Part shown: one piece after another, positions 2,096 to 49,285 of the stretch
How positions within the stretch are numbered: position 1 is the stretch's first letter
How the letters are laid out: each line of letters begins with the position of its first letter
Source: Pholidichthys leucotaenia
Lineage: Eukaryota
DNA: 64,000 nucleotides
Assembly (NCBI GenBank): GCA_020510985.1
Contig: CM035843.1
Location: forward strand, 157,123,922-157,187,921
Reading direction: 5' to 3'
Position numbers and translations under genes: made by a program
The notes under the pieces: generated by a model
Seen by the model: only the letters and a program-made list of their open reading frames with translations
Database searches by the model: none
Told to the model about the DNA's origin: nothing

Positions 2096-2689
2096 TGCTG
2101 GTTAAGTTTTATTCAGTGTAATCAGCAGTGATTGTTTTAGCGAGGAGGATGGTGGGTGTTCACCAGTTTAGCGTGAGGTTCAAATGTATAGATTGTAGAG
2201 GATGCCTTTCACAGACAAGACTGAGTTTATTTCTCAGGGTTGGTTTACTGAGAGGTCACATCCTCTAACAAGCACAGAATCTCAGAAAAGAGGAAGAGCA
2301 ATCGTCTCACACAGTTCTTATATTCTCCAAAGTCACAAATCCCCCAACATCAAATCACACACCCCCAACCCACAGTCCTTTAGTAAACATCCAGCCCCGA
2401 GGCTCCTTGGTGTCTCCATTGTCTCTTAACCTCCTAGCCTCCGGGGCTCCTGCTGGGACATTCTCTCCAACTTCCCATCTCCTGCAAGGCCAACTTCACA
2501 CCTCCCGTAGGTCCCTGCAGGGTCAGGTCCTCTTTGTCCATTAAGACGTGAAGCTTCTAGAATATGCACCGTCATGCCTACTAGGTGTATGTGGGGAATA
2601 TGGATACAATATATGCGCCCTAAATATGCCCCATAAGATGTAAATTAGCTACAAACTTGGAAGAATAAAAGTGCAAAGATATGATAAAG

Positions 2690-3705
2690 GATGCCAGTTT
2701 TTTCAAGTTGCAAATTACAATTTAATTACACAGAAGAAAGCATCCAGATGCAAATTTACAAGACAAAGTTGAACATTTACAGAAAAAAATAAACTTTTGA
2801 GAAAAAGCTGCAAATTTATAAGAGAAAAGTAGCAAATTTATGAGAAAAAAGAAAATTTACATTAAAAAAATGCCAATTTTTGACAGAAAAAGTTGCAATT
2901 TTATGGGAAAAAAAAGTCACAATTTTTTAATAAAAAAGTTGCAAATTTACCAGAAAAAAAATGACAATGTATGGGGAAAAAGCTGCAAATTTAAAAGAAC
3001 AAGATAGTGAATTTATGTAAAAAAAATGTAATTTTTTTGACAAAAAAGTCACAAATTTATGAGGGAAAAAGGTAGCAAATTGTTGAGGAAAACGTCACAA
3101 AATTACAAGAAAAATAGCAAATTTATGTGAAAAAGTTGCAATATTTTGCGAATAAAGTCACAAATTTATGAGGGAAAAGGTTGTAAATTCTTGAGGAAAA
3201 CGTCGCAAAATTAGAACAAAAAATTGCAAAATTATGTGAAAAAAGTTGACAATTTTTGACAAAAAGTCACAGATTAATGAGAAAAAAGTTACAAGTTTAT
3301 GAGAAAAAATGAAACTTTACAGGAAAAAAACTGCAAATTTACAAAAAAATTGAAAATTTATGAAAAAAGTCAAATTTTTTAGCAAAAAAATTGCAGATTT
3401 ATGAGAATATAAGTCACAAATTTATGAGGAAAAAAGTTGCAAGTTGTTGAGGAAAAAGTCACTTTTTTTTTGCAAATTTATGTGAAAAAGTTGAAAATTT
3501 CTGAGAAAAAAGCCACAAATTTAAGAGAAAAAAATGAAACTTTACAAGAAAAAAATGCAAATTTATGAGAAAAAGGTCAATTTTCAAGAAAAAAAACAGC
3601 AAAGTTATGAAATGTCACACATTTTTTTAGGAAAAAATTGCAGATCTATGAGGGGAAAGTAGTCACATTTTGTTAAAAAAAACAGCGTTGCAGAGCTACA
3701 AGTTT
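2690..3705 (+). repeat. Minisatellite array, A-rich orientation. About 20-bp unit 'gttgcaaatttatgagaaaaa' with an about 120-bp higher-order repeat
   Basis: More than 40 tandem units. Blocks 3050-3167 and 3168-3285 repeat as a unit of about 118 bp ('gtcacaaatttatgagggaaaa.g.t.g.aaatt.ttgaggaaaacgtc.caaaatta...'). Confidence 0.85.
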
Positions 3706-4744
3706 TTTTTTTATTATTTCCGCTTAGAATTGATCGCTGAGAGTCATGTTAGTTTTGCAAATATATGGAAAGATTTGACACTATTCGAGAAAAACGCAAA
3801 TTTTTAACAATTTTCCAAAATAAGAGCGTTGACCATTGAGCGCTAGGGTCAGACTTTTATTCTGAAAAGCCAACCGGAAGCTCAAACGCTATAGCTAACT
3901 TAACGCTAACTGATAAGCACCGAGTAGACGCAGTTTTTCTCGGTCTTCACCATTGTTGTGTTTTCTCTGGACTTTTCCCAACAGATTGTCAGCGACAGAA
4001 CCTCTGACAGCAGAGCGAGAGTTTGGACCCGGTTCGGACGGTAACATAAACCTCAGCCTCTTCACCAAACCGCACAAAAATGACGTATTTCATCACACTA
4101 TTAAAGTTTGTGTCTGACACGGCGGCTCACTGAGCTGACGTGGTAGAATTGTTAGTAGCTTCATGGGATTTGTTCAGTGAAAATGACGAGCTGTTCAGCT
4201 TTCATTAGTGCCGAGAGCTGGAATTTACATCAGGTTGGGCTCACTTCCGCGTTTATGCGCAGGTTACTCTGATGTCAACTAAGGAGGAAGCGCTGACATC
4301 AGCGCCGCTTCGACGGCTTCGCCCATCGCAACCCGGAGCAAAGGTCTGCTGGACACTCCGTACCTGCGTAAACCAAAATGTTGTGGTGGTTTATTTTTGA
4401 TATCAAAATGTGACGCAAAACAGAAAAAAGAATTGACAACAACAGACATTTCTGATCGGACCATATAAGGCTGCTACTGCAGTCAAAGCAGCAGCTTTAT
4501 ACAGTATGTTGCGGTCAGAAATCCACATTTTCTTTGGTCTTTGATGACGCAGCTGCGGAAGTGGGAGGGAGTGCCGGGGGTGCGGAGTGTCCTGATACGG
4601 GCGAAAGAGCGGTGTCCCCTCGTGTCATCAGAACGCTTGAAGTTACGGAACTGAATAACATGATTTTGAACCAGTGATTCTAAGCAGAAATGCAAAAACA
4701 AAACAACTCTTTAAACTTTCCCCCCCCCCCCCAAGATTAGCAAC
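3706..4744. other. Unique about 1-kb core flanked by inverted minisatellite arrays. CpG-containing, with CRE-like palindromes
   Basis: No tandem structure. Contains 'gagctgacgtgg' (about 4133-4144) and 'gctgacatcagcgc' (about 4293-4306). Only short ORFs; no recognisable domain. Confidence 0.5.
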
Positions 4745-5830
4745 TTTTTTCTGAAATTTTTCCTCATAAAATTGCAGTTTTTCTTGTAAATCTGCAACAT
4801 TTTTCCTGTAAATTTTTCGTTTTTTTTAAAACAAATTTGCAACTTTTTTCACATAAATTTGGGATTTTTTTTCTCAAAAATTAGCAACGTTTTTCATAAA
4901 TTAAAAAAAAACAACTATTTTTTAAAGTGGCATCTTTTATCTTAGCATCTTTATTCTTGCAAATTTCTAGATTTGCATTTCTTTCCTAAAAAAATCTTAG
5001 CTTTTTTCCCCTCATAGATTTACAACTTTATTCTCAAAATTTGCAGCTTTTAGTTTGCAGCTTTTTCCTGTAAATTTTCAACTTTTTTCTCATAAATTTG
5101 CCAAGTTTTTCAAAGATGTGCTTTTTTCTCAAAAATGTGCATTTTTTTTCATAAATTTGCAAAAAGAATTAAGTTTAATTTTCAGTTTTCTCCTGAAAAA
5201 TTTTCTCATAGATTTGCAGGTTTTTTTCCTCAAAAATGTGCGTGTTTTTCACATAAATCTGTGATTTTTTTTCTCAAAACTTTTCATCTTTTTTCCCCAC
5301 ATAAATTTAAAACAATTTTCCTGTAACTGTTCAACTTTTTTTCAAAAATTTGCAACTTTTTTCATAAACTGGAAAAACAAAAACCTTTTTTCTTGGAAAT
5401 TTTCTACCGTAAATTTTCAGCTTGTTTTTTTCTTACAGATTTGCATTTCTTTCCTAAAAAAATCAGCTTTTTTCTCTCATAGATTTGCATATTTTTTTCT
5501 CATAAGTTTGCAACATTTTCCTGTAAATTTTCATTTTTGTCATGAATTTGCAACTTTTTTCTTATTAATTTTCAATTTTTTTTCTCAGTGTACTTTTTTT
5601 CATAAATTTTCACAAAAAGGCTTAATAATTTTCAAATTTCTCTTGAAAAATTTTTCCTCATAGTTTTGCATTTTTTCTCCAAATTTCATTTTTTTCCTCA
5701 AAAAATTTCCATCCTTTTTATGTAAATTTGCAACTTTGTTTCATAGATTTGTGATTTTTTCTCATAAATTTGTAAAGTTTTTTCTCATATTTGTTTCTTT
5801 TTTCCTGTAAATTTTAGTGTTATCATATTT
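4745..5830 (-). repeat. Minisatellite array, same family as 2690-3705 in inverted (T-rich) orientation
   Basis: Units 'ttttctcataaatttgcaac' are the reverse complement of the 2690-3705 unit. ORFs 5055-5326 in the track are low-complexity artefacts. Confidence 0.85.
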
Positions 5831-6039
5831 TCACTTTTAGCCCATAAGAACCTAGACTCTCCAAGGAAAATTATGGGGGACTGGGTTCTTAAGAGTTAAT
5901 GTGACATGTATCATACACAGCTGAATAACAAAAAAAAAACAAGTGGTTGCATAAGTTTGCACACCCATAAACTAATTGTCCATTGCAGAGCCTCTTGATT
6001 TAATCACAGCTTTCAGTCTTTTTGGGTCAGAGTCTGTTA

Positions 6040-6240
6040 CCACCGTCACTGTGTTTACACACGTGTGCATGCAATGTAAAACCAAATGACTTCACCAGAA
6101 TGAAAATGAAGTCTTGGAGTGACCCAGACTGAAATCCAACTGAAAATCTGTGGGCTGTGCACCAGGGATGTGCCCGTTTAAGGGCGTGCACACTTATAAC
6201 GCAGGAAAATCAGCTGGTAATTGTGATGCAAATGAGCATC
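6040..6240 (+). pseudogene. Degraded Tc1-like transposase fragment
   Basis: 'agtcttggagtgacccagactgaaatccaactgaaaatctgtgggc' is a decayed version of the transposase C-terminal motif '[17 protein letters not shown]'. Confidence 0.4.
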
Positions 6241-6260
6241 TATCTCTCTCTCCCTGACAG

Positions 6261-6388
6261 CCATGGGTGTGTTTGAGGCGTGCTCGGTGCTCCTGGAGCT
6301 GAAGAACCTGCCTTTTAAGGAGAAGAAGAATCTGAAGTCAGCCGTGGTGGAGAATGGAGGCCTCCTCTCCTTTGTGGTCAATAAACAG
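6261..6388 (+). CDS. Host coding exon, N-terminal half of a BRCT-like domain
   Basis: Polypyrimidine tract plus AG acceptor ('tctctctccctgacag|CC') and 'CAG|gtcaga' donor. Translation MGVFEACSVLLELKNLPFKEKKNLKSAVVENGGLLSFVVNKQ has the BRCT-like pattern hydrophobic..GG..hydrophobic. Ends in phase 0. Confidence 0.6.
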
Positions 6389-6509
6389 GTCAGAGGCTGG
6401 GACTGGGGAGAAAAAAAACCAAACAAACAACAAAACACATATTTGACCAAAAATATCTGCAGGCAGCCTTAAAAAATAAAGACGAGACACACAATGAACA
6501 AAAGTTTTA

Positions 6510-8123
<1,614 letters not shown>

Positions 8124-8444
8124 TATATGTGTGACTTTTCATAAATTAGTGATATTTTTTTTTTTTTAACTTTTTTTCTCAAAAAATTGTAAGAAAAAAG
8201 TCACAAATGTATGAGAAAAGTTGATGGTAATTTTAAGTTTCTCCCTGCAAAAAATGTTGAGGGTGACCTTGTATCTTGGAGGCCTCCTAGCATTTGCGTA
8301 TTTTGCTGTATAGACAGAAACGTCTTTGAGCTGGACTTGTTGTAGCTACTCTGATAGAACGCCTCCTGATCCAAGTCGTATAAAATCAAACTGACACAGA
8401 CAGAAATAAGCAGGCGTCACTCTTGCTTCTTCCTCGTCCCACAG

Positions 8445-8637
8445 TGCTCTCTGATAGTGACCAGCGACGTGTCCAGCCTGAGCTCCAACAGGCTGCGCAG
8501 CATCCAGAAGCACCAGACGCCTGTGGTCGGCGTGGATTACGTCTACAAGTGTCTGGAACAGGGAACGCTGCTGCCGGTGGACGAATACAAGTTGGACACC
8601 TCCACTCCAGCGGAGATGGCTCCACTCACACTGCAAG
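8445..8637 (+). CDS. Host coding exon, C-terminal half of a BRCT-like domain
   Basis: 'cttcctcgtcccacag|TGC' acceptor and 'CAAG|gtactg' donor. Phase 0 start, compatible with exon 6261-6388. Translation CSLIVTSDVSSLSSNRLRSIQKHQTPVVGVDYVYKCLEQGTLLPVDEYKL matches the BRCT C-terminal consensus (THLI..........P.V...W...C......L....Y.L). Confidence 0.6.
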
Positions 8638-8699: not shown

Positions 8700-9170
8700 G
8701 GGGATTAAATTTGCACTTTTTTCTTAATTTATGACTTTTTCCTTATAGATGTGCAACAGTTTCTTATAAATTTGCAGCTTTTTTCTTTAAAAAATTGTCA
8801 CTTTCTTCTCGCATAAATTTGCAATTTTTTTCTTAAAAATGTGTGACTTTTTTCTTCATAAATCTGCAGCTTTTTCTCATAGATTTGCAACATTTTCTCA
8901 TTTGCAAATATTAAAAATTTGTGCTTTTTTCCTCATAAATTTGCAAGTTTCTCTCAAAAATTTTACTGTTTTTCTCAGAAATCTGCAACATTTTCTTGTA
9001 TATTTGTAACTTTTTTTCTTATAAATTTATTTTTTTTTTGTAGATTTGCAGTTTTTTCCCCATTAATTTGCAACTTTTTCCTCTAACTTTTTTCATGTAC
9101 ATTTTCAACTTTTTTCATACATTTGCACTTTTTTCTCATAGATTTGCAACTTTTTTCTGTAAATTTTCAT
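8700..9170 (-). repeat. Minisatellite array, same family as 4745-5830
   Basis: Tandem 'ttgcaacttttttctcataaatttgca' units. Confidence 0.8.
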
Positions 9171-9235
9171 CTTTCAAGGAAAATATGCAGTTGGTATATT
9201 TATAGATTTTAGAAAAGCATTTGATACAATAAATC

Positions 9236-9428
9236 AGAGGTGTCCAGTCATGTGCCATGGAGGGCCAAGACCCTGCAGGCTTTACCTCCAGCCAGTGTCT
9301 TCAGCAGCAGATTCCACTGAATTTCTTCCCACTGATTGCTGATAAGTGAAAACACCTGCTGAAGAGGCTGGGTAGAAGAGAAAACCTGCAGGGTCTTGGC
9401 CCTCCTTGGCACATGATTGGACACCCCT
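9236..9428. mobile_element. MITE of about 190 bp with about 45-bp terminal inverted repeats, inserted in the CR1-like RT
   Basis: Repeats 'ggtgtccagtcatgtgccatggagggccaagaccctgcagg' (9239-) and reverse complement 'cctgcagggtcttggccctccttggcacatgattggacacc' (-9425). Flanked by a direct repeat 'aataaatca' (9227-9235 and 9429-9437) that interrupts the codons 'AFDTINHSIL'. Confidence 0.75.
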
Positions 9429-11237
9429 GCAATAAATCATTCAATACTTTCTGATAAACTGCAATTGTATGGTATTGGGGGAGTGGCACTGAATTGGGTT
9501 ACAAGTTATTTATCTGAGAGAACAGTTTCTGAAGATGGGAGAATATCTGTCTGGATGTATGGGAATTGCCTGTGGGGTCCCCCAGGGGTCAGTATTGGGC
9601 CCCAAATTATTTAACGTATATATAAATGATATATTCCAAGTTTCTAAATTATTAAAAATTATATTATTTGCTGGTGATACTAATATATTTTATTAATATA
9701 TTTTATTATGGAAATAATTATAAGGAGCTAATCCATACATTAAATAATGAATTAAATAAGCTAAAAAATGGATGATAGTAATAAATTATCACTAAATATA
9801 GATAAAACTAATGTAATGATATTTGGTAATTGGAAAAATAAAGAAGATATGCATATTCATATAGATAATGTAATTACTGAAAATGTTACAGATCAAATTT
9901 TGGAGTGTAATACTAGATGATAAAATTAGTTGGAAACCACACATCAGATACATACAAAACAAAGTGGCAAAAAATACCACAATTATAAATAAAATTAAGC
10001 AAGTCCTAGATTACAAATCACTTCATATCTTGTATTGCTCATTAGTACTTCCATACTTGACCTATTGTATAGAGGTCTTGGGTAACAATTATAAAAGTAT
10101 ACTTAATTCATTGCTAATATTACAAAAAAAGGCAGTCCATGTTATACGCAAAGTCGGGTATCTTGAACATACTAATTTATTGTTTTTACATTCAAAGTTA
10201 TTGAAATTACAGGATCTAGTTGATTATTATGCAGCACAGTCAATGTTTAAAGTCAGTAACACTTTTTGCCACACAATATACAAAATCTTTTTAGTCTAGA
10301 GAGAAGGGATATACCATTCACGGGGAATACAAAATTTAAAATGCACCTAGTAAGATCTACTTGGAAAAGTTTTTGTATGTCTGTGTATGGGGTAAAATTG
10401 TGCAATGGGTTGGGGGAGAAACACAAATGTCCAAACATCCATATATTTAAATCAACATATAAATAAATGATTTTTGAACAATATAAAGATAAAGGACAGT
10501 AATATTACAATGTGTCTTTAATGAAGAAAGGTTGTTATTGTTGAATATATATGCGGAGTACTATTGTTATTATTGATATTATCATTATTATTACTAGAAT
10601 TTTACAACTCTATTTTAGTATTGTGATTGTTGTTTAGGATGGAATTATTAAAAGTAATATATATGCTGAGTGGTATTATTAATTTTATTATTATTATTGT
10701 TGTTGTTATTGTAACTACTGTGTGGCTGTTATTATGGTTATTACTACAGTATATGGTTACTTATTGTACCTACATAGGTATTGTAAGCCATGTGGGGGTA
10801 TATGGTGGTATTTATGGTGATTATGATGATGATAATATTGTCTATAATTATATTAAATGTACCAGAAGTATTTATTTATTATTATTACAATTGTTATTGG
10901 ATGTTGGTATTGTCGTCATTATAAATTATCATTGTATTATTTCTACTCCATAATTTAATTATAAGATGCATTATATATTATGGTATTGTATAATGAATGT
11001 AATCATGGAATGGATAGTGACTTTGGTGATAATATTATAATTTATTGAGTATGGAGAAGGGGTGGGGCTATATAAGCGTTGGCTTCTTCCCACTCCTTTT
11101 GAACAAGGACATTTTTGTTATGTTATTTTTTGGGTTGATTCCTTGTTTTTAATTTTTTTTTTTTGTCTTGATGATCAAATCAGTCAAATCTTTTTTCTAA
11201 AAAAAAAAAAAATCAATTTCTTACCTTTAAATTTTCA

Positions 11238-11262
11238 GCTTTTTTTTTTTTTTTTTTTTTTA
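11238..11262. repeat. Poly-T homopolymer
   Basis: About 25 T in a row. Confidence 0.9.
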
Positions 11263-12132
11263 ATTTGCACTGCTCATCTGGTTGCTGGTGGTTTTATTCA
11301 CTGTGTCATCATCATCATCATCATCATCATCATCTATGAGGAAATGAGATGCTGATGAACAGGCCGGTTCTCCCACACACTGACTCATAATTAATCTGTT
11401 GCTGCCTTCCCACTAACTCTCAGTGGATATAACTGTACACTCTCATGTTTAACAACAGGGTTTTATGATTTTAAAAAGTGAGACCATGACAGATGACAGA
11501 TTGTTTCCAGACTTTTGCCACCTTCAGTGTGACCTCAAACCTGTACAGTTCAAGTGGAGAAAAACACAAAGAATACAAACAATGCAATGTATAGTTTAGG
11601 CCTTTATTCTAAGGTCACCAGACCCAGAAGAATTACATCTCATTGTGCTACACTTATTGATAGCATATTTTCAAATAATATGGATAATAACACAAAGTGG
11701 ATTAATCATCGATACTGGTGACCATCTGCTAATATTAAGTTTTTGACAATGATTACAGGAAAGAACTAGAAAAGCACTCGGACAGCGCAGGACCTCCGCC
11801 AAGTACCTCAGTTCCCCATAATATTGGGATTTTCCCCAAATATAATAGTCCTACATTTATTTTATCTATATTTTCAGATTCCTTGACCATCAAAACATAC
11901 CTTTAGCAACTGGATTCACATTGATATCTTTATTAGTTCAGTAGTTATTGACAAAAATCACTTTTTCGGTAATGGCAGTTTTCCTCTGGATATAGCTTCA
12001 TAGCTTTTGAAGATACAACAAATCCATTGACACGTCACTGATTCCTCAGTGTCTTGGCTATATTTTGGTGTTTGTTGTATGTTTATATCTTAATTTGTTA
12101 CCTTACAGTGATGAAAATTCCAAAGATCCCCT

Positions 12133-12546
12133 TGTGGGACACATATGTTGGTTTCATATGCTCCACAAATAGAATACTGTATGTATATTGTGTGCTGCAC
12201 GTCTCAGGGGAACAAAGGGACTGAGCCTCCTAGAGGTAATGGGAGGGTGTGAGATTTGGCCTTTTGTTTCAAGGAGATGGCCTTGAGAGATTTCCTGACC
12301 ACCGGAGACTAGGGGGTGGATGGTGTTAAGATCGGAGGAAGTTATATTGTGACTGGGATTAAGTACCATGTGACTGTATGTTTGATTAAACACCATGTGA
12401 CTGTAGTTTGATGTCCTAGGTATAAAAGGACAGATGTGAGAAGATTCATCCTCTTTTCCTGCTTTGAAATTGTTGGAGTATGTGATTGTGAATAAAGCTG
12501 AATCTGAGGAATAAACTCAGTCTCATCCTTCAACACATTCTCCACA
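12133..12546 (+). repeat. 5' LTR of copy 1
   Basis: Identical apart from a few SNPs to 16606-17019. Contains 'tataaaagg' at about 12420 and 'aataaagctg' at about 12485. Confidence 0.85.
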
Positions 12547-12549
12547 CTG

Positions 12550-13992
12550 GTGACCTTACGACGAAGCATGAGCAGAGATAATTCTCCTGAGCGGGGCTCG
12601 TCAGAAGCCAGCCTGACGAATGCCGCCACGTTCCAGCTGCCGGACTTCTGGCAGAATAGTCCGCGCTCCTGGTTTAGCGCGGTCGAGGCGCAGTTCAACC
12701 TCCGGAGAATCTCGAGAGACGACACAAAATTCTACCATGTGGTGGCGAAGCTGGACAACCACACAGTCCAGAGGGTGGAGAACCTGGTCAAACACCCGCC
12801 GGACAGCGACAAGTACAGCGCATTGAAGACTGCGCTTATCAGCCACTTCACCCCCTCGGTGCAACAGCGAGCAGAGGGGCTTCTAGCGTTGACGGAGTTT
12901 GAGAACGACAGACCCGCGGACCTGATGGGGAAAATGCTGAGGTTGAGAGACTCCGAAGATGACAGCTTTATCTTCGCCCACCTTTTCCTCAGGACCCTGC
13001 CGCCAGCGGTGAGAGTGACCCTGGCAGGTTCACCTCTGTTGGCCCGGCGAGACTACCACGAGCTGAGCCAGGAGGCACAACGACTCGTCGATGCCCACAA
13101 ACGGAACGCAGCTTCGGCCGCGGCAGCAGAGCTAGGCGCAACGTCCGGAGACGGCATGGGGCCAGAGGCTGCAGCACCAGACTCACCGACGACGGCAGCA
13201 GCAAGGGCCAGGCGACACAGAGTGGACGACCACCTTTGCTTCTACCATCGCCGCTTTGCAGAGAGGGCGCTCAAGTGCATTCCACCGTGCCATTTCAAGC
13301 GCTCGGCCCTCGTGGAGGAGAACAAGCTGCTCTACCTGACTGATGCACGTTCGGGGAGGCATTTCCTCATGGACACAGGCTCCCAGCTGAGCTTCATCAC
13401 GCCTTCCTACGCGGACCGGCTTGCGCCTTCCAGGGGTCCCCGGGTGTCAGCAGCGAACGGCTCAGCGATTAAGACCTTCGGGGAGAGGACTCTGCTTCTG
13501 TCTTTGCAGGGCCGTGCATTTGAGTGGACTTTTGTTGTAGCGGCAGTCAATTTCAACATGTTAGGGGCTGATTTTTTGTGCTCACATGGTTTATTGGTTG
13601 ATCTTGCTAACAGACGTCTGGTTAATGCACTCTCCTTTCACTCTATTCCCTGCACAGCTCGAGTGGCCCCGCCAACTGCACAAGCCAACGTCACAGCTGC
13701 AGGTGGTAAGTTCCACGCACTCCTCACTCAGTTCCCAGCACTCACGGTCCCAACGTTTTCGGCGACAGTGGCTAAACATGGGGTGGAACATTTTCTTACT
13801 ACCACCGGCCCGCCCGTTTTTGCAAAAGCTCGGCACTTGGACTCAGCTAAACTGACCATAGCGCGCAAGGAGTTTGCCAACCTGGAAAAACTGGGCATCA
13901 TCAGGCGTTCGAAGAGCCCCTGGGCTTCACCACTGCACATGGTCCCAAAGGCTGATGGCTCGTGGCGACCTGCGGTGATTTCCGCAGGTTGA
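12550..13992 (+). CDS. gag-protease ORF of copy 1 (480 aa, uninterrupted)
   Basis: DUF1759-like gag N-terminus. Cysteine/histidine cluster 'CFYHRRFAERALKCIPPCH'. Aspartic protease 'FLMDTGSQLSFI'. Confidence 0.75.
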   Translation: MTLRRSMSRDNSPERGSSEASLTNAATFQLPDFWQNSPRSWFSAVEAQFNLRRISRDDTKFYHVVAKLDNHTVQRVENLVKHPPDSDKYSALKTALISHFTPSVQQRAEGLLALTEFENDRPADLMGKMLRLRDSEDDSFIFAHLFLRTLPPAVRVTLAGSPLLARRDYHELSQEAQRLVDAHKRNAASAAAAELGATSGDGMGPEAAAPDSPTTAAARARRHRVDDHLCFYHRRFAERALKCIPPCHFKRSALVEENKLLYLTDARSGRHFLMDTGSQLSFITPSYADRLAPSRGPRVSAANGSAIKTFGERTLLLSLQGRAFEWTFVVAAVNFNMLGADFLCSHGLLVDLANRRLVNALSFHSIPCTARVAPPTAQANVTAAGGKFHALLTQFPALTVPTFSATVAKHGVEHFLTTTGPPVFAKARHLDSAKLTIARKEFANLEKLGIIRRSKSPWASPLHMVPKADGSWRPAVISAG

Positions 13993-15992
13993 ATAACGCC
14001 ACAGCGCACGACCGCTACCCGATTCCGCATATCCAAGATTTTCGGTTCATTTGGCAGGGGGGCGCATTTTTTCTAAAATGACTTACTATGCGGTTACCAC
14101 CAGTTCCAGTGCGCGCTGAGGACATACCCAAAACAGCGGTAATAAACTCCTTTCGGGCTTTTTGAGTTTTTGCGCATGCTGTTTGGGCTCAAGGGAGTGG
14201 TGCCAGACGTTCCAAACGCATGATGGATGCGGTCCTAAGCGATCTCCCTTTCGTGTTCGTCTTCTTGGATGACATTTTGGTAGCCAGCGCGTCCGAAGAC
14301 GAACACGAAAGCCACCTCACAGCAGTTTTCCGGAGGTTGGCAGAGCACGGGTTAATAATTAACCCAGCGAAGTGTCAGTTCAAGGTGGCGCAGATTGATT
14401 TTTTGGGGCATCGCGTTTCGCCAGAAGGAGCGGTCCCTCTGCCCGATAAGGTGCGCGCAATAACAAATTTTCCCCAACCACAAACGGTCAAAGCGTTACA
14501 AGAGTTTTTTGGGAATGGTTAATTTTTATAACAGTTTCCTCCCCCGTGCAGCGCAGCTCATGCAACCATTGTACGCTGCACTAAAAAAACAAAAAACCGA
14601 CGAATAAAATCGAATGGTCTCCTGAGCGGGAGCGCGCATTCTCTCAAGTCAAATCAGCCCTGGCAAACGCTGCGTTGTTGGCACACCCAGTCCCAATGGC
14701 CCGCATGGCGCTCACTATTGACGCGTCAGATGTTGCCATAGGGGCGGTCGTTGAACAGTACGTGGCTGGGGCTGGCAACCGCTCCGTGGTTTTTCAGCAA
14801 AACCTGCGCGATAGTGAGCGAAAATACAGCGCCGTTCGACAGGGATTGTTAGCTCTACACTTGGCCATCCGCCACTTCCAGTTCTGGCTGGAAGGACGCC
14901 GTTTTATACCGCATTCGTGGTCCCACAAACCGCTGACTTTCGCGATGGCCAAGATTTCGGAAACCTTGGTCGGGCCGGCAGCAGAGACAGCTGGCCGCGA
15001 TATCGGAGTTTACCCACCGATATCCAGCATGTGGCAGGTAATATAATGTAGTGGCAGACTGCCTCTCACGTGCTGTGGCGGCTTCCAGGCCCGTGGGGGC
15101 AGACTCTGCAGCCATGGCCGCAGACCAGGGTAGCGACGCGGAAGCGCGCGCCGCCCCCGGTCCGCGTGAGGGATAGATTTATGCCTCCATGGCCGCGAGC
15201 AGGTTAGCGACGCGGACGTGCGCGTGCTCCAGTCTGGACCAACAGGGTTTAAGGCTGGAGAGCAGGGTGCTGCAAGATGGTATGCCCCCCCTAATCTGCG
15301 ATGTCTCCACTGGACGACAGCGTCCGGTCGTACCAGCCGCGTGGCACCGCTGCGTTTTTGACTCGATGCATTCTCTGGTGCACCCGGGGGTGGCGCAGGT
15401 CGTCAGTCAAAATGGTAGGAGAGAAATTTGTAAGGCCGTGCTGAGCAAGCAGGTCAAGGAGTGGGCAACAGCCTGCGTGGCTTGTCAGGAGCCAAAATGC
15501 ACAAACACACTAGAGCTCCCTTGGAGCCTTTTCACATCCCGGCTAAGCGGTTCGATCATGTGCATGGTCGACCTCGTAGGCCCCCTTCCGGTCCGTCACA
15601 GGGGTGCACACACCTTTTTGACAATGGTGGACCGCACCACGCGTTGGGCCGGAATGGTCCCACTGGCATCAACCACAGCCGAGGAGGTGGCGCGCGCATT
15701 TTTAACAGCATGGGTAGCACGTTTTGGAGTTCCGTCAGACATTACGTCCGACAGAGGTCCTCAATTTGTGTCCGAGCTCTGGTCAGCGATTGCCCGCAGC
15801 CTGGGAGTAACGATCGACCGCACTACCGCGTACAACCCGCAGGCTAATGGTTTATGCGAACGTTTCCATAGGTCATTGAAAGCAGCCCTCAGAGCGTCAC
15901 TTACGGATACAAATTGGGTAGACAGGCTACCATGGGTTTTATTGGGGTTGCGTTCTGCACCTAAAGAGGATTTAAAAAGCCTCCCCAGCTGA
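13980..15992 (+). pseudogene. pol of copy 1 (RT, RNase H, integrase), broken into at least 4 frames
   Basis: ORF fragments carry RT 'FVFVFLDDILVAS' (14220-14522), RNase H 'TIDASDVAIGAVVEQ' (14675-15046) and integrase 'HRCVFDSMHSLVHPG...CVACQ...DLVGPLP...DRGPQFVSELW...AYNPQANGLCERFH' (15189-15992), with frameshifts and stops between them. Confidence 0.8.
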
Positions 15993-16605
15993 GTTAGTTT
16001 TTGCGCAGCCACTCGGCTGCCCGGGGAGTTTCTTCCCGGATAATCCTGCGCCAGAGTGCTCCCCTGCTCAGCGGTTGCAGAGCGACACGGGATCGAGCAC
16101 GCTTCCGGGCCCAGTTCATCACAGCTTCCCGCGCGTTTTTGTGCCTAAAAGCTTTTAAAAAAATGCGGAGTTTGTTTTTGTCAGGCATGATGCCCACCGC
16201 CCAAACTTGCAACCGCCTTATGATGGACCATTTAGAGTGCTGGAAACAGGAGAGAAGCATTTTGTGCTAGATTTGGGAGGCAGAAAGGAAGTAATTGGCA
16301 TAAACAGACTCAAACCCGCTTTTGTGATGGCTGATGAAGCTGTGCATTTGGCGAGGGCTCCCTGACGCGGCAGACCCCCTAGAGGGCATCCTCCGGAACA
16401 CCCACAGAGATTGACTAACAGTTCTAATCCACAGGCAGCGGCCCCACAGCAGGAGGACTCTGCGGAGGCAGGAAAACCGGCTTACAGCAAATACGGCAGA
16501 AGACTAAGGCCTAAGCGGCATGTGGATTGATATGTAGTGATTTTATTATGACATGCATCTTTAGTTATGATTGTTCCATCTTAGACGTTTGGGGGGGGGG
16601 GGTCA

Positions 16606-17019
16606 TGTGGGACACATATGTTGGTTTCATATGCTCCACAAATAGAATACTGTATGTTTATTGTGTGCTGCACGTCTCAGGGGAACAAAGGGACTGAGCC
16701 TCCTAGAGGTAACGGGAGGGTGTGAGATTTGGCCTTTTGTTTCAAGGAGATGGCCTTGAGAGATTTCCTGACCACCGGAGACTAGGGGGTGGATGGTGTT
16801 AAGATCGGAGGAAGTTATATTGTGACTGGGATTAAGTACCATGTGACTGTATGTTTGATTAAACACCATGTGACTGTAGTTTGATGTCCTAGGTATAAAA
16901 GGACAGATGTGAGAAGATTCATCCTCTTTTCCTGCTTTGAAATTGTTGGAGTATGTGATTGTGAATAAAGCTGAATCTGAGGAATAAACTCAGTCTCATC
17001 CTTCAACACATTCTCCACA
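16606..17019 (+). repeat. 3' LTR of copy 1
   Basis: See the 5' LTR entry. Preceded by G13 polypurine tract. Confidence 0.85.
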
Positions 17020-44934: not shown

Positions 44935-47432
44935 GGTTGGTCACTATCAGAATCAATGAATACTCTAAAAATGATCTGGCAAAACAGAATTGGGAAGAAC
45001 TATATAATGAAGAAGACACAAACAAAGCATATGAAATATTTTTATGAATATTTAAATTTTTGTGTGATTAAAAAAAATGTCTAATTATATAAAAAAAATC
45101 AATAAGCAAAAACATTCAGACAGTCCATGGGTACCTAAAGGATTAAAAAATGCCTGCAAAAAGAAAAATACGTTGCATAGAGAATTCATAAGACATAGAA
45201 CTAAGGAAGTAGAAAATAGATATAAAAATAAGTTAACCAATATTATGAAAATAAGTAAAAAGGAATACTATAGTAAATTAATAGATAATAAAAATAATAT
45301 TAAAGGTTTATGGAATGTGTTAAAGTAATTCCAAATGGAGACAGACAAGATAATTATCCTTAATTATTATATAGATAATTATATAAATATTAATAGTATA
45401 AATGATGCAGTAAATAGATTCAATGAATTCTTTGTAAATATTTGACCAAAATTAGCAGAAAGATTCCCTGATCCATTCATATCTGAAAAGGGGAAAAGTA
45501 AATTAATCGAAAGAAATCCAAATTCAGTATTTTTTACAGCAGTGGAAGAGAGGGAAATCATTGAGATTGTACATAAATTCAGAAATAAAGTTTCAACTGA
45601 CTGTGATGACATTGACATGGTAACTGTTAAAAAAAAGTTATTGAGGAGATTGCTAAACCACTGAAACACATTTGCAGTTTACTATTTTCAAACTGGTACA
45701 ATTCCAAGTAAAATGAAAATAGCTGAATGAAAAGTCATACCTCTATACAAAACTGGAAACAAACACCACTTCACAAACTACAGGCCCGTTTCTCTTCTGC
45801 CCCAATTTTCAAAAATACTGGAAAAACTCTTTAATGTCAGATTAGACAAGTTTGTAGCTAAATACAGTTTACTTACAGACTGTCAGTATGGATTTAGAAC
45901 CAACCACTCTACAAGAAATTATTAATTCTATGGACAGAAAGAAATTTGCAGTGGGAGTGTTTGATTTGAAAAAAAAAGCATTTGATACATTAAATCATGA
46001 AATACTGATTAATAAATTGGAACGATATGGACTCAGGGGAGTGGTATTGAATTCAGTCAGAACCTATTTTAAAAAAAACAGGCAATAATTTGTGAAGATG
46101 GGACAATATAAATCTGAGAGTTTGGACATTGTTTGTGGTGCCCTCCAGTGGTCAGTGTTGGGACCTAAACTTTTTATTTTATGTATCAATGATATTTGCA
46201 ATATTTCTGAACTGTTGAAGATTGTGATATTTGCAGATGACACAACTGTTCTGGGTACTGGTGAGGATCTACAGCAACTTTTGAATATAATCACTACCAA
46301 ATTCAGTAAAATAAAAGAATGGTTAAATAAAAATAAATTATCATTAAATTGAGCAAAACAAAGTTCATGTTATTTGGAAATAGTAAGGCAAATATTCAAG
46401 CAAAAATACAGATGGATGACATCAACGCTGAAAGAGTTCAAGACAATAAATTTCTAGGTGTGATTATAGATGAAAAAATTTGCTGGAAACCTCACAATAA
46501 ATACGTACAAGCTAAACTGTCCAGAAGTATTTCGGTCATGAGCAGAACAAAGCACATACCGGATCAGAAATCACTCCATACTTTGTATTGTTCACTTGTT
46601 TTACCATATTTAAATTGTTGTTCAGAAGTTTGGGGAAATGCATATAAAAGTTCATTACAGCCGCTTGTTATTTTACAAAAAAAGAGCAATAAGAATCATT
46701 CATGGTGCCGGTTTTCCTGATCACACAAATTATTTATTTTTACAGTCTAAAAGTTTGAAATTCTTTGATCTGGTGGAATATAAAACTGCCATAATAATGT
46801 ACAAAATAAGGAAGAATTCATAGCCAGTTAACATCCAAAACATGTTTGTTGAAAGACAAAAGGGATATCATTTAAGGGGGGAGTTGCTTCTAAAGACAGT
46901 GGGTGTACGAACAACTAGGAGAAGCTTTTGTGTTTCGATCTGTGGGGTTAAATTATGGAATTGATTAAATATGGAGTTAAAACGATGTCCAAACATTCTG
47001 AGTTTAAAAAAAAAAGTATAAAAATGAGAAATTAAATACAGGGAGGAAGATGGTTCAGTTAATCATTAGGGTTGGTTGGGTGAAAGTCTGTGAGAGTCAC
47101 TAGTGGATTGTTGATCAGTAGAAAGTTGTTTACTTGTTTCATTTTTGAATTTCTATATTTTAATAAGTAATAAGCTCTTGGAATGCATGTAGAGATTTGT
47201 TTATTCACATTCTTGCTCATTAAGTTTTCATTTGTTGTTATTGCTATGTATGTACAGTATGTGAATATGAGCAAGCAGGTATATTAATTAGTTAAGTATG
47301 GGACAGGACAAGATAAGCTTTTGGCTTCAGTCTTGTTCCTTTTCGGGCTGCATTTGGATTTTTTATTTTTATTCTTGTTTTTGTTTTGTCTCATTTGAAA
47401 TAAATGGTATCTATCAATCAATCAGTCAATGG
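44935..47432 (+). mobile_element. CR1/Rex-like LINE, 5'-truncated and decayed
   Basis: Pre-RT segment 45077-45328 is homologous to 17400-17665. RT 'FAVGVFDLKKKAFDTLNHEILINKLERYGL', '[18 protein letters not shown]', 'IFADDTTVLG'. C-terminal 'IIDEKICWKPH...LYCSLVLPYLNCCSEVWG'. (tcaa)n tail at about 47410-47432. Confidence 0.75.
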
Positions 47433-49285
47433 TTGCATAAGTCTGTATACCTTAAAACTGCTGCTTTGTCAAAGTGCTTTTTGATTTAATTACAGCCCTC
47501 AGTCTTTTTGTTTGGCACTATTAATTCCATTGTCTCACCTGATTTAGCCATGGTTCCTGCTTATTCTAATGCTGAATGTAATGACTTTGCAAATTTTATG
47601 GTGAATAAGGTGAATGATTTTAGAGCAAGAACTCCACCATCTGCTGAGGACTTTGGCCTGAATCAGGTCCCCTCTAACACGTGGTCCTTTTTCACTCCAG
47701 TCACGCTACTGGATGTAAATGGTCTTCTGGCCTCTATGAAGCCCTCTTCAAGCCCCTTAGGTATCTTCCCAATGTCACTGCTTTTCAAATTGATTCTATT
47801 GGGTCTTTAATTGTCGAAATCAATAAATTGGTCACTTTTATCAGGCACTGTTCCCAGTTCCTTTAAACAAGCAGTGGTTGAACCCAAATTAAAGAAACAA
47901 AACTTAGACCCTACAGAACTGAACAATTACAGGCCCATTTCAAAGCTCCCCTTCCTATCCAAAATGCTTGAGAAAGTAGTAGCCGAGCAGTTAACTACAT
48001 TCATAGAGAGAAATCAAATCTTAGATACCTTCCAGTCTGGTTTCCGCAAAATGCACTCCATCGAGACAGCGCTAATTAAAGTCTCGAGTGACATCATGAT
48101 GGCAGCAGATTCTGGTCAGTACTCGGTCCTGGTGTTGTTGGATCTCACCGCTGCTTTTGACATGGTGGACCACAATATAGTGATAAATAGGATGAAGGAC
48201 ACGTTTGGTATTTCTGGATTAGTTCTGAAATGGTTTTTATCTTATTTAACTGACAGAGGGTTTTGTGTTTTGCTCAACGAGAAGATGTCAGAGGTTAAAG
48301 GACTTTTCCTGTGGGGTTCCTCAAGGCTCAATTCTGGGCCCTATTCTGTTTTTATTGTATTTAACCCCACTTGGCCAGTCAGTCAGTTTAAGGGTGTCTC
48401 TTACCATTTTTATGCAGAGGACATTCAGCTTTCCTGCTCTTTTAAAGAAAATGAGCTGAACATTTTATCAAACTTAATCTCTTGCCTGTCTGCTATTAAC
48501 AAATGGTTAAACAGTAACTTCCTACAATTAAATCTTAACAAGACAGAAACACTGATCATCACTCCAGACAGTAAAATTCCTCTGCTAAGGCAACACTTAG
48601 GTCACCTAGGCTCTTCTGTCCAGCCCAGCCTACATAACTTAGGTGTTGTTTTTGACAATGCTGTGTCACTGGACTGCTGTGGTTGGCAATTAGTCAGAAA
48701 TTGCTTTTCTCATCTGAGGAATATAGCAAAACTTAGGCCTATGGTCTTAACACCTGAACTGGAAATGATCATTCATGCTTTTGTCTTGTCTTGCTTAAAT
48801 TATTGTAATGCCCTTTTTATGTGTTTTAATAAAACTGCTGTTGCCTGCCTTCAGACTGTGCAAAATGCAGCAGCTCGGCTTTTAACCCGGACAAAGAAAA
48901 GGGAACACATTTCCCCAGTTTTATTGTCCCTTCACTGGCTGCCAGTTCCTTTTAGATTTCATTTTAAGATACATCTCAGCCCTCTTGAATCCTTATGCAA
49001 CAACGCGATCACCAAGATCCTCAGACCAGAGACTCCTGGTGGTCCCTCGGACCAAATTTAAAAACCATGGAAATCGGTCTTTCCAGGCCGCTGCACCACA
49101 GCTTTGGAACGCACTTCCCCTGTCCTTGCACTACCTTGAGTCTGTTGACTCCTTTAGGAAGGAGTTTAAAAACTCATTTGTTTAGACAGGCTTTTAGCTC
49201 TCGTTGAATGGCTTTTATTCTTTCACTGTTTTCTCTTTTTTTATTCCTATTCATATGAATATTTTATCTTGAATGAATGAATGAA
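47433..49285 (+). mobile_element. L2-clade LINE, 5'-truncated (RT and 3' end)
   Basis: ORF 47811-49061 'NYRPISKLPFLSKMLEKVVAEQL...FQSGFRKMHSIETAL...VLVLLDLTAAFDMVDHNIVI' is collinear with the L2 ORF2 at 19290-22469. 3'UTR ends in (gaat)n at 49265-49285. Confidence 0.75.

Follow-up and report, generated by a model that had tools for sequence, protein, structure and literature searches.

The stretch analysed here, referred to as the window, comprises 64 kb of eukaryotic, transposon-dense DNA from the fish Pholidichthys leucotaenia (assembly GCA_020510985.1, contig CM035843.1, positions 157,123,922 to 157,187,921), and all coordinates given are whole-window positions. Judged from its sequence, the locus is the 5' end of a fish parp4 gene. 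The first coding exon (exon 2, 6261 to 6388, + strand) has its ATG at 6263 and is directly preceded by a splice acceptor at 6260 (junction ctctccctgacag|CCATGG), followed by exon 3 (8445 to 8637, + strand), which encodes the second half of the BRCT domain. The 106-aa product of these two exons matches the BRCT domain of human PARP4 in the PDB (9dfo, E = 1.2e-15), and the exons match fish homologues too, with the best being 91% identical. A preliminary reading of the letters alone, the original prediction, had placed a palindromic repeat structure inside an intron-bearing locus; the introns are confirmed and the gene is parp4. Just upstream of the gene and in its first intron, two arrays of the same 21–22 bp unit lie in opposite orientations, L (2666 to 3700) and R (4745 to 5839), with a third array, T (8706 to 9174), further downstream. 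The core between L and R is compared below with the parp4 upstream region of other fishes.

For this comparison, Champsocephalus gunnari (L002) and four other fish contigs with the parp4 locus (L093, L098, L099 and L104) were used. The layout of a splice acceptor directly before the ATG exon is found in all five, as it is here, so that an upstream non-coding exon must exist. At 280–710 bp upstream of the ATG exon, L002, L098, L099 and L093 carry a block of the motifs ACGTCAC, CTTTATTTTGAAAAC, CCGGAAG and GCTAGC..GCTAAC, and about 170 bp past this block a donor-like G|GTAA..AACCTCAG is found in L002, L098 and L099. No upstream motif block was seen in L104. In the window, the motif block lies at 3853 to 3915 (CTTTTATTCTGAAAA..CCGGAAG..GCTAAC) and is followed by the putative exon 1 donor, G|GTAACATAAACCTCAG, with its GT at 4041 to 4042. 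Motifs M1 and M2 each occur once in the window; L002, L098 and the window have both of them in the same order, at a distance of 168–186 bp. Order, strand and spacing of the motif block and the donor-like motif agree between the window and the other fishes, as does the place upstream of the first coding exon. A promoter profile built from L002, L098 and L099 only gives one significant match in the 64-kb window, at 3853 to 4072 of the + strand (E = 2.1e-6); three further matches have E values of at least 3.3. In 690 kb, comprising the window and the fetched loci, the profile matches parp4 upstream regions only, with zero false positives at E ≤ 1, and it finds the independent species L093–L097 at E = 4e-8. 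Based on the profile match together with motif order, strand and spacing, the core is the orthologous parp4 promoter together with a putative non-coding exon 1 and its splice donor. This assignment covers at least the conserved upstream block at 3853 to 4072 (+ strand), which holds the promoter motifs, the putative end of exon 1 at 4040 and the donor.

The block is embedded in a CpG island of the host (3826 to 4655, + strand) that comprises the parp4 promoter, the putative exon 1 and, presumably, the beginning of intron 1. Over these 830 bp, the CpG observed/expected ratio is 0.97 (window average 0.57) at a GC content of 0.48, corresponding to a CpG density of 55 per kb vs. 23 per kb window-wide. 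The expectation that the core is non-repetitive and CpG-containing therefore holds within the window, where it is present in single copy. The CRE-like motifs that had been noticed in it are also real, with five TGACG in 830 bp vs. 1.2 per kb window-wide, and they fit a promoter. By contrast, the ratio in the arrays is 0.16–0.32 (0.32 in L and 0.24 over 4656 to 5839), and it is also low in an adjoining Tc1-like element (0.15) and in the flanks (0.26–0.30). Within the arrays, TG and CA alternate at two positions of the unit, a signature of decayed CpG, indicating an ancestral unit of approximately AAAAAGTCGCAAATTTACGAG. With 0.97 in the core vs. 0.16–0.32 in the arrays, the core looks like an unmethylated island and the arrays look like methylated repeats. 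The continuity of the CpG island suggests that 4073 to 4655 is also host DNA, i.e. the start of intron 1. Two by-eye matches to the intron 1 of other fishes, at 4243 to 4272 and 4598 to 4645, were set aside as unproven, an intron 1 profile giving no significant match.

The two opposite arrays of one short unit, about 1.05–1.15 kb each, are real by Tandem Repeats Finder (TRF), by self-blastn and by block shuffles (see below). Array L (+ strand) is A-rich and contains approximately 47 units of 21–22 bp, with the consensus CAAATTTATGAGAAAAAAGT(T/C)(G/A) from TRF and from reading the sequence, and the A-rich unit can be given as approximately AAAAAAGTTGCAAATTTATGAG. Array R (− strand) consists of the reverse complement of the L unit and lies inside parp4 intron 1. 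Autocorrelation has its maxima at 21–23 bp in both arms. Minus-strand self-blastn of the region gives many matches of 64–70% identity, the best one in register being 2770–3610 vs. 5612–4764 (67%, E = 2e-49). The higher-order repeat of about 120 bp that had been described for both arrays stands only in part. A 109-bp period is found locally in L (2885 to 3288, 75–80% matches by TRF) and one of 119 bp in T (8787 to 9025, TRF), whereas neither TRF nor autocorrelation detects a higher-order period in R. In L and T, AAA/TTT tracts recur at 11.0-bp spacing, two per unit, and this phasing is weaker in R; the phased A-tracts in L and T suggest intrinsically bent or writhed DNA.

The further arrays that had been indicated at 1905–2095 and 8700–9170 are present as well. 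Array T (8706 to 9174, − strand) is a partial copy in intron 3, with the unit order of the inner half of L, and it is cut by a LINE fragment; L 3207–3636 aligns to T 9166–8736 with 72% identity over 454 bp (E = 6e-50, blastn). The patch at 1905 to 2095 (− strand, T-rich on the + strand) is a degenerate array remnant with a TRF call at 2044–2084, in which 1938–2089 matches 9032–9176 at 71% and both arms at 73–79% (blastn). In intron 2, adjoining the Tc1-like element, a small patch at 8125 to 8230 has units in both orientations and matches L, R and T at 76–91% over 29–67 bp (blastn). A probable continuation of T past the LINE insertion at 11190 to 11275 (− strand) is tentative, being seen by eye only from unit-like words (ttaaattttcagcttttt...ttaatttgcac). 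Outside these patches, the remaining approximately 53 kb of the window contain a single stray unit only.

To compare the arrays with one another, global array alignment scores were set against 22-bp block shuffles. The unit order is common to L and R (z = 9.7), L and T (z = 6.2) and R and T (z = 4.5), while the order of the 1905–2095 remnant is not significantly in common with the other arrays by the same shuffles (z = 1.4–1.7). Such a common order points to block copies of one template of about 1.1–1.2 kb and not to independent expansion in place. L, R and T are therefore whole-block copies of one array-bodied repeat of this size. With an identity of 67% between L and R vs. 72% over 454 bp between L and T, R is no nearer to L than T is.

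Besides the array, the repeat has a non-array segment at one end. At the inner end of L, J (3701 to 3751, + strand) forms the left half of an inner inverted repeat, of which J' (4656 to 4708, − strand), at the inner end of R, forms the right half. The local alignment score of J to the reverse complement of 4656–4708 is 35, compared to a null of 17.4 ± 2.6. Only these two copies of J are present in the window, and the inner inverted repeat does not extend from J further into the core. Past J, L has an array-like tail (3752 to 3825, + strand) that ends approximately 30 bp before the conserved promoter block, based on a match of 3753–3819 to 5164–5097 (75%, E = 4e-4, blastn). Between J' and the start of R, a run of 13 C is found at 4720–4732; the left copy has no counterpart and shows a T-run at 3703–3712.

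At the outer side, the 22-bp inverted repeat 2666–2687 / 5820–5839 is a mere variant of the array unit and does not extend into the flanks. No target-site duplication surrounds the whole structure, the check for one that came with the original prediction having revealed no direct repeat at 2666/5839, although erosion by age is possible. The only nearby 9-mer, CCCATAAGA, occurs at 2631 and 5841 and does not adjoin the left end. Ends of the CACTA, Tc1/mariner (TA), hAT and Helitron types were considered at 2666, 3751, 4656 and 5839, none of which is consistent across all copies. Examined as a dispersed repeat, the block has a sharp inner boundary at J, an outer 'terminal repeat' that is a unit variant, and copies that all lie within about 9.4 kb.

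These ends bear on how the copies were made. One explanation is a local inverted segmental duplication, in which template switching during replication, or repair, would have copied the array-plus-J block in inverted form across the promoter and in part into intron 3, without a transposase and from a source such as the intron 1 copy. The lack of target-site duplications and distinct termini agrees with this, as do the confinement of all copies to about 9.4 kb with none elsewhere in the 64 kb, their likeness in unit order and length, and the J ends facing each other. However, at least three block copies, besides two remnants, lie in either orientation and are spread over three different introns or flanks, which would take several independent events, each of which must have picked up the array block and left the host DNA beside it behind. 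The end of the inverted repeat falls exactly at J, as expected for a discrete element, and missing target-site duplications are weak evidence at approximately 35% divergence. Local duplication is therefore judged unlikely, though it is the alternative to be taken most seriously.

In the other fishes, no array units are found near the parp4 promoter: there are none in 20 kb of L002, none in 12 kb of L099, and none in L093, L098 and L104. Given their absence from the other fishes, L, just upstream of the promoter, and R, in intron 1, are by this comparison lineage-specific additions. Intron 1 measures 390–520 bp in the other fishes vs. 2,220 bp here, and the excess is mainly made up of R and of a weak Tc1-like remnant. 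At 3–330 of a contig from another fish, L001 (GCA_028748405.1, JAMHJM010004326.1), there is a different 21-bp array (AAGTCATTATTTCAAGATACT), with 16 copies and higher-order periods of 64 and 101 bp. Its position, some 210 bp ahead of parp4 exon 3, corresponds to that of the window patch 8125–8230, and the skeleton of its unit, AAGTCA..ATTT..GAGA, resembles the array unit of the window.

According to the original prediction, the structure could be a foldback-type element, i.e. a single transposon spanning 2666–5839 with 3706–4744 as its own middle domain. The architecture is indeed like that of Tetris, in which the arms have tandem repeats in their outer domain but not in their inner one (here J) and enclose a non-coding middle (PMC4079207), and the single strand can fold back. 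Nevertheless, the middle is the orthologous parp4 promoter and putative exon 1, standing in the right place and orientation to the ATG exon, and four fishes without the arms have an orthologue of the same block (3853–4072). The middle also forms a CpG island between CpG-depleted arms, no target-site duplication of 8–10 bp was found, the arms are 63–67% identical and no nearer each other than to T, and a second copy of the core is absent from the window. Core orthology essentially excludes one foldback element that brought its own middle domain. What had been set against the prediction from the outset, arrays around an unrelated insert, is nearly what is found here, since the DNA between the arrays is a host promoter.

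A related explanation is a composite (macro-)transposon in the making, where L and R are separate insertions but a transposase could move L, the promoter and R together through outward-facing ends, giving a nascent foldback element with a captured promoter. The outermost arm units are mutually inverted (2666–2687 vs. 5820–5839), and the middle domains of foldback elements are known to vary in composition (PMC4079207). On the other hand, there is no sign that L, promoter and R ever moved as one; the arms are old and diverged, no source of transposase is known, the window has the core only once, and core reading frames have no match in the protein databases. This makes a composite element very improbable. 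That the three parts may act as a unit in the broader sense, either as such a nascent composite element or as a chromatin device, is likewise a long shot. If a composite element were real and mobilised, parp4-type promoters would scatter around the genome; if it were a chromatin device, the 11-bp-phased A-tracts in the methylated flanking arrays might fix the borders of the unmethylated island.

Finally, low-complexity arrays are hard to assemble, and a collapsed or mis-oriented satellite block could in principle mimic an inverted pair. As roughly every third site differs between the arms, with many indels in addition, they cannot be one array assembled twice, and the unique host DNA in the middle is collinear with that of other species. 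An assembly artefact is thus scarcely credible.

The extensive hairpin or cruciform that had been predicted is confirmed only as far as an imperfect single-strand hairpin. Folded as a single strand, 2666–5839 forms 640 left-right pairs at −512 kcal/mol vs. −328 kcal/mol with the right arm shuffled, and the longest continuous helix in this fold is 19 bp. The arms have 63–67% identity, a longest exact inverted match of 20 bp, and a spacer of 904 bp between the inner inverted repeats. In yeast, inverted-repeat instability is suppressed once heterology exceeds 25%, and this holds for long single-stranded DNA too (PMC10164571). With approximately 35% heterology and a 904-bp spacer, the structure falls outside the range of rearrangement in yeast, so neither a cruciform nor a fragile site is expected. 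Cruciform formation and fragility are accordingly considered unlikely; the fragile or recombinogenic site that had been proposed would call for near-identical arms and a short spacer, and it finds no support in arms of 63–67% identity placed 904 bp apart.

The explanation that we consider probable, with moderate confidence, is that the parp4 promoter is flanked by two separate old copies of an array-bodied dispersed repeat, with T and the remnants as further copies. The promoter and exon 1 (3826–4655) would have been resident first, before the repeat copies arrived. The repeat would be about 1.1–1.2 kb long, with a fixed array of 21–22 bp units as its body and the non-array J at one end. One copy, L (2666–3751, with the tail to 3825), would have come to end approximately 30 bp upstream of the conserved promoter block, and a second, R (4656–5839), would have landed in opposite orientation in intron 1, with the J ends facing each other. 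The third, partial copy (T, 8706–9174) would have entered intron 3, next to smaller remnants. Cut-and-paste elements tend toward open chromatin at gene starts and re-insert nearby. The copies might have arrived by repeated local insertion of such a non-autonomous cut-and-paste transposon, and insertion near open chromatin with local re-insertion is probably the most economical route. Selection would keep insertions out of the CpG island itself. After insertion, the copies would have been methylated and decayed, with the island staying unmethylated. With two insertions, the inverted layout becomes a by-product, and it is old (arms approximately 35% diverged) and probably inert.

Several points weigh against this explanation. 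The array-like sequence of about 75 bp past J in L has no counterpart in R, and L and R have neither a target-site duplication nor a distinct terminal inverted repeat. The five patches all lie within about 9.4 kb, which fits repeated local duplication without a transposon equally well. The copies covered here all lie in this 10-kb neighbourhood, so that mobility is a presumption. For the core, both the start of transcription and the exon 1 splice (donor 4041, acceptor 6260) are inferred from conservation, and a profile of the distal intron 1 of other fishes has no significant match in the window.

Other repeats surround the structure. The Tc1-like transposon adjoining the small patch spans 6508 to 8125 in parp4 intron 2, with 219-nt terminal inverted repeats of 95% identity and a 349-aa transposase frame at 6855–7904, and it looks much younger than the arrays. 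The weak Tc1-like remnant lies at approximately 5900–6200 in intron 1, between R and the ATG exon, and matches the intact copy by tblastn with E = 0.014; within this region, 5944–6024 is 73% identical to 47430–47510. A LINE reverse-transcriptase fragment extends from 9175 to approximately 11100, with frames from 9175, and appears to split T; it contains a MITE-like palindrome at 9195–9469 with 89-nt arms, 74% complementary and 97 nt apart. Upstream, a SINE-like inverted pair (714–850 / 1549–1687) is 90% identical and carries the common teleost motif ...gcatgttctccccgtgtttgcatgggtt.... An LTR retrotransposon at approximately 12300–17000 is marked by identical 27-bp tandem repeats at 12357–12412 and 16830–16885 with gag-pol frames between them. 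Just left of L, 2218–2323 matches 12422–12523 and 16895–16996, located just downstream of these 27-bp repeats, at 72%. Among reading frames of at least 110 aa in 9700–64000, there is no obvious parp4 exon, and this part of the window is filled with LINE, Gypsy-type and Tc1-like reading frames. With no obvious parp4 exon for at least 55 kb after exon 3, the intron appears to be very large and transposon-rich.

The region is without coding capacity. Protein databases gave no match for a six-frame pseudo-protein of the core nor for the array-derived reading frames, one of which also remained without a match in a full HMMER scan of 1.8 billion representatives. A metagenome scan with a two-unit array pattern returned 90 loci, each a single chance match, with zero arrays among them, and a stricter array pattern had 0 matches in a scan of GTDB genomes. 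An Rfam scan of the whole window found nothing, and neither did a search of full-text literature for the array unit strings; in the literature on fish foldback or minisatellite transposons, no description of this array family was found. Similar 20–22 bp arrays (...AAGTCGTAATATTACGAGAA...) are common in spiny-rayed fish genomes. The array unit is presumably also like the binding sites of salmonid-type Tc1 transposases (AAGTCG.AA.TTTAC), and the terminal repeats of the Tc1-like element of this window are unrelated.

As a caution for other loci, a foldback-like picture can arise when copies of an array-bodied repeat come to lie on both sides of a promoter, and a few orthologous loci suffice to tell a foldback element from such flanking copies. 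For annotation, the parp4 promoter and putative non-coding exon 1 can be placed at about 3.85–4.04 kb, and intron 1 has grown four- to five-fold by repeat insertions. The CpG ratios of 0.97 vs. 0.16–0.32 would make this a clear case in which an unmethylated island has survived with methylated repeats on both sides. No new mechanism and no likely fragile site are indicated, and the structure is ordinary and old.

Compared to known systems, the structure shares with fragile long inverted repeats, such as the Alu inverted pairs of yeast models, its kilobase scale and its ability to pair in the single strand, but it differs in the 904-bp spacer and in a heterology of approximately 35% vs. the limit of about 25% in yeast (PMC10164571). 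The core resembles vertebrate CpG-island promoters in several respects: its observed/expected ratio is near 1 (0.97 over the 830 bp), it stands at the 5' end of a gene of housekeeping type, it carries CRE-like TGACG and ETS-like CCGGAAG motifs as well as a putative non-coding first exon, and its surroundings are CpG-depleted. It differs in its GC content of 0.48, under the usual mammalian criterion, and in a transcription start that is placed here from conservation. The arrays are close to transposon-derived dispersed minisatellites or satellites, with which they share a short-unit array body, several copies with the same unit order (z = 9.7, 6.2 and 4.5), sites in introns and promoter flanks among transposons, and CpG depletion as in methylated repeats. 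For the copies in the window, the inner boundary at J is sharp, and no target-site duplications or distinct terminal inverted repeats were found. With foldback elements (Drosophila FB, Galileo and Tetris), which have arms with internal tandem repeats and target-site duplications of 8–10 bp (PMC4079207), the structure shares long inverted tandem-repeat arms, although of only 63–67% identity, a repeat-free inner part of the arms (J) and a non-coding middle. In those elements, the middle travels with the arms, whereas here it is resident host sequence, the conserved promoter and putative exon 1 of parp4; there is no 8–10 bp target-site duplication, and the two arms are no nearer each other than to the solitary T. 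The structure is thus a foldback look-alike made of separate copies and not a member of the family.

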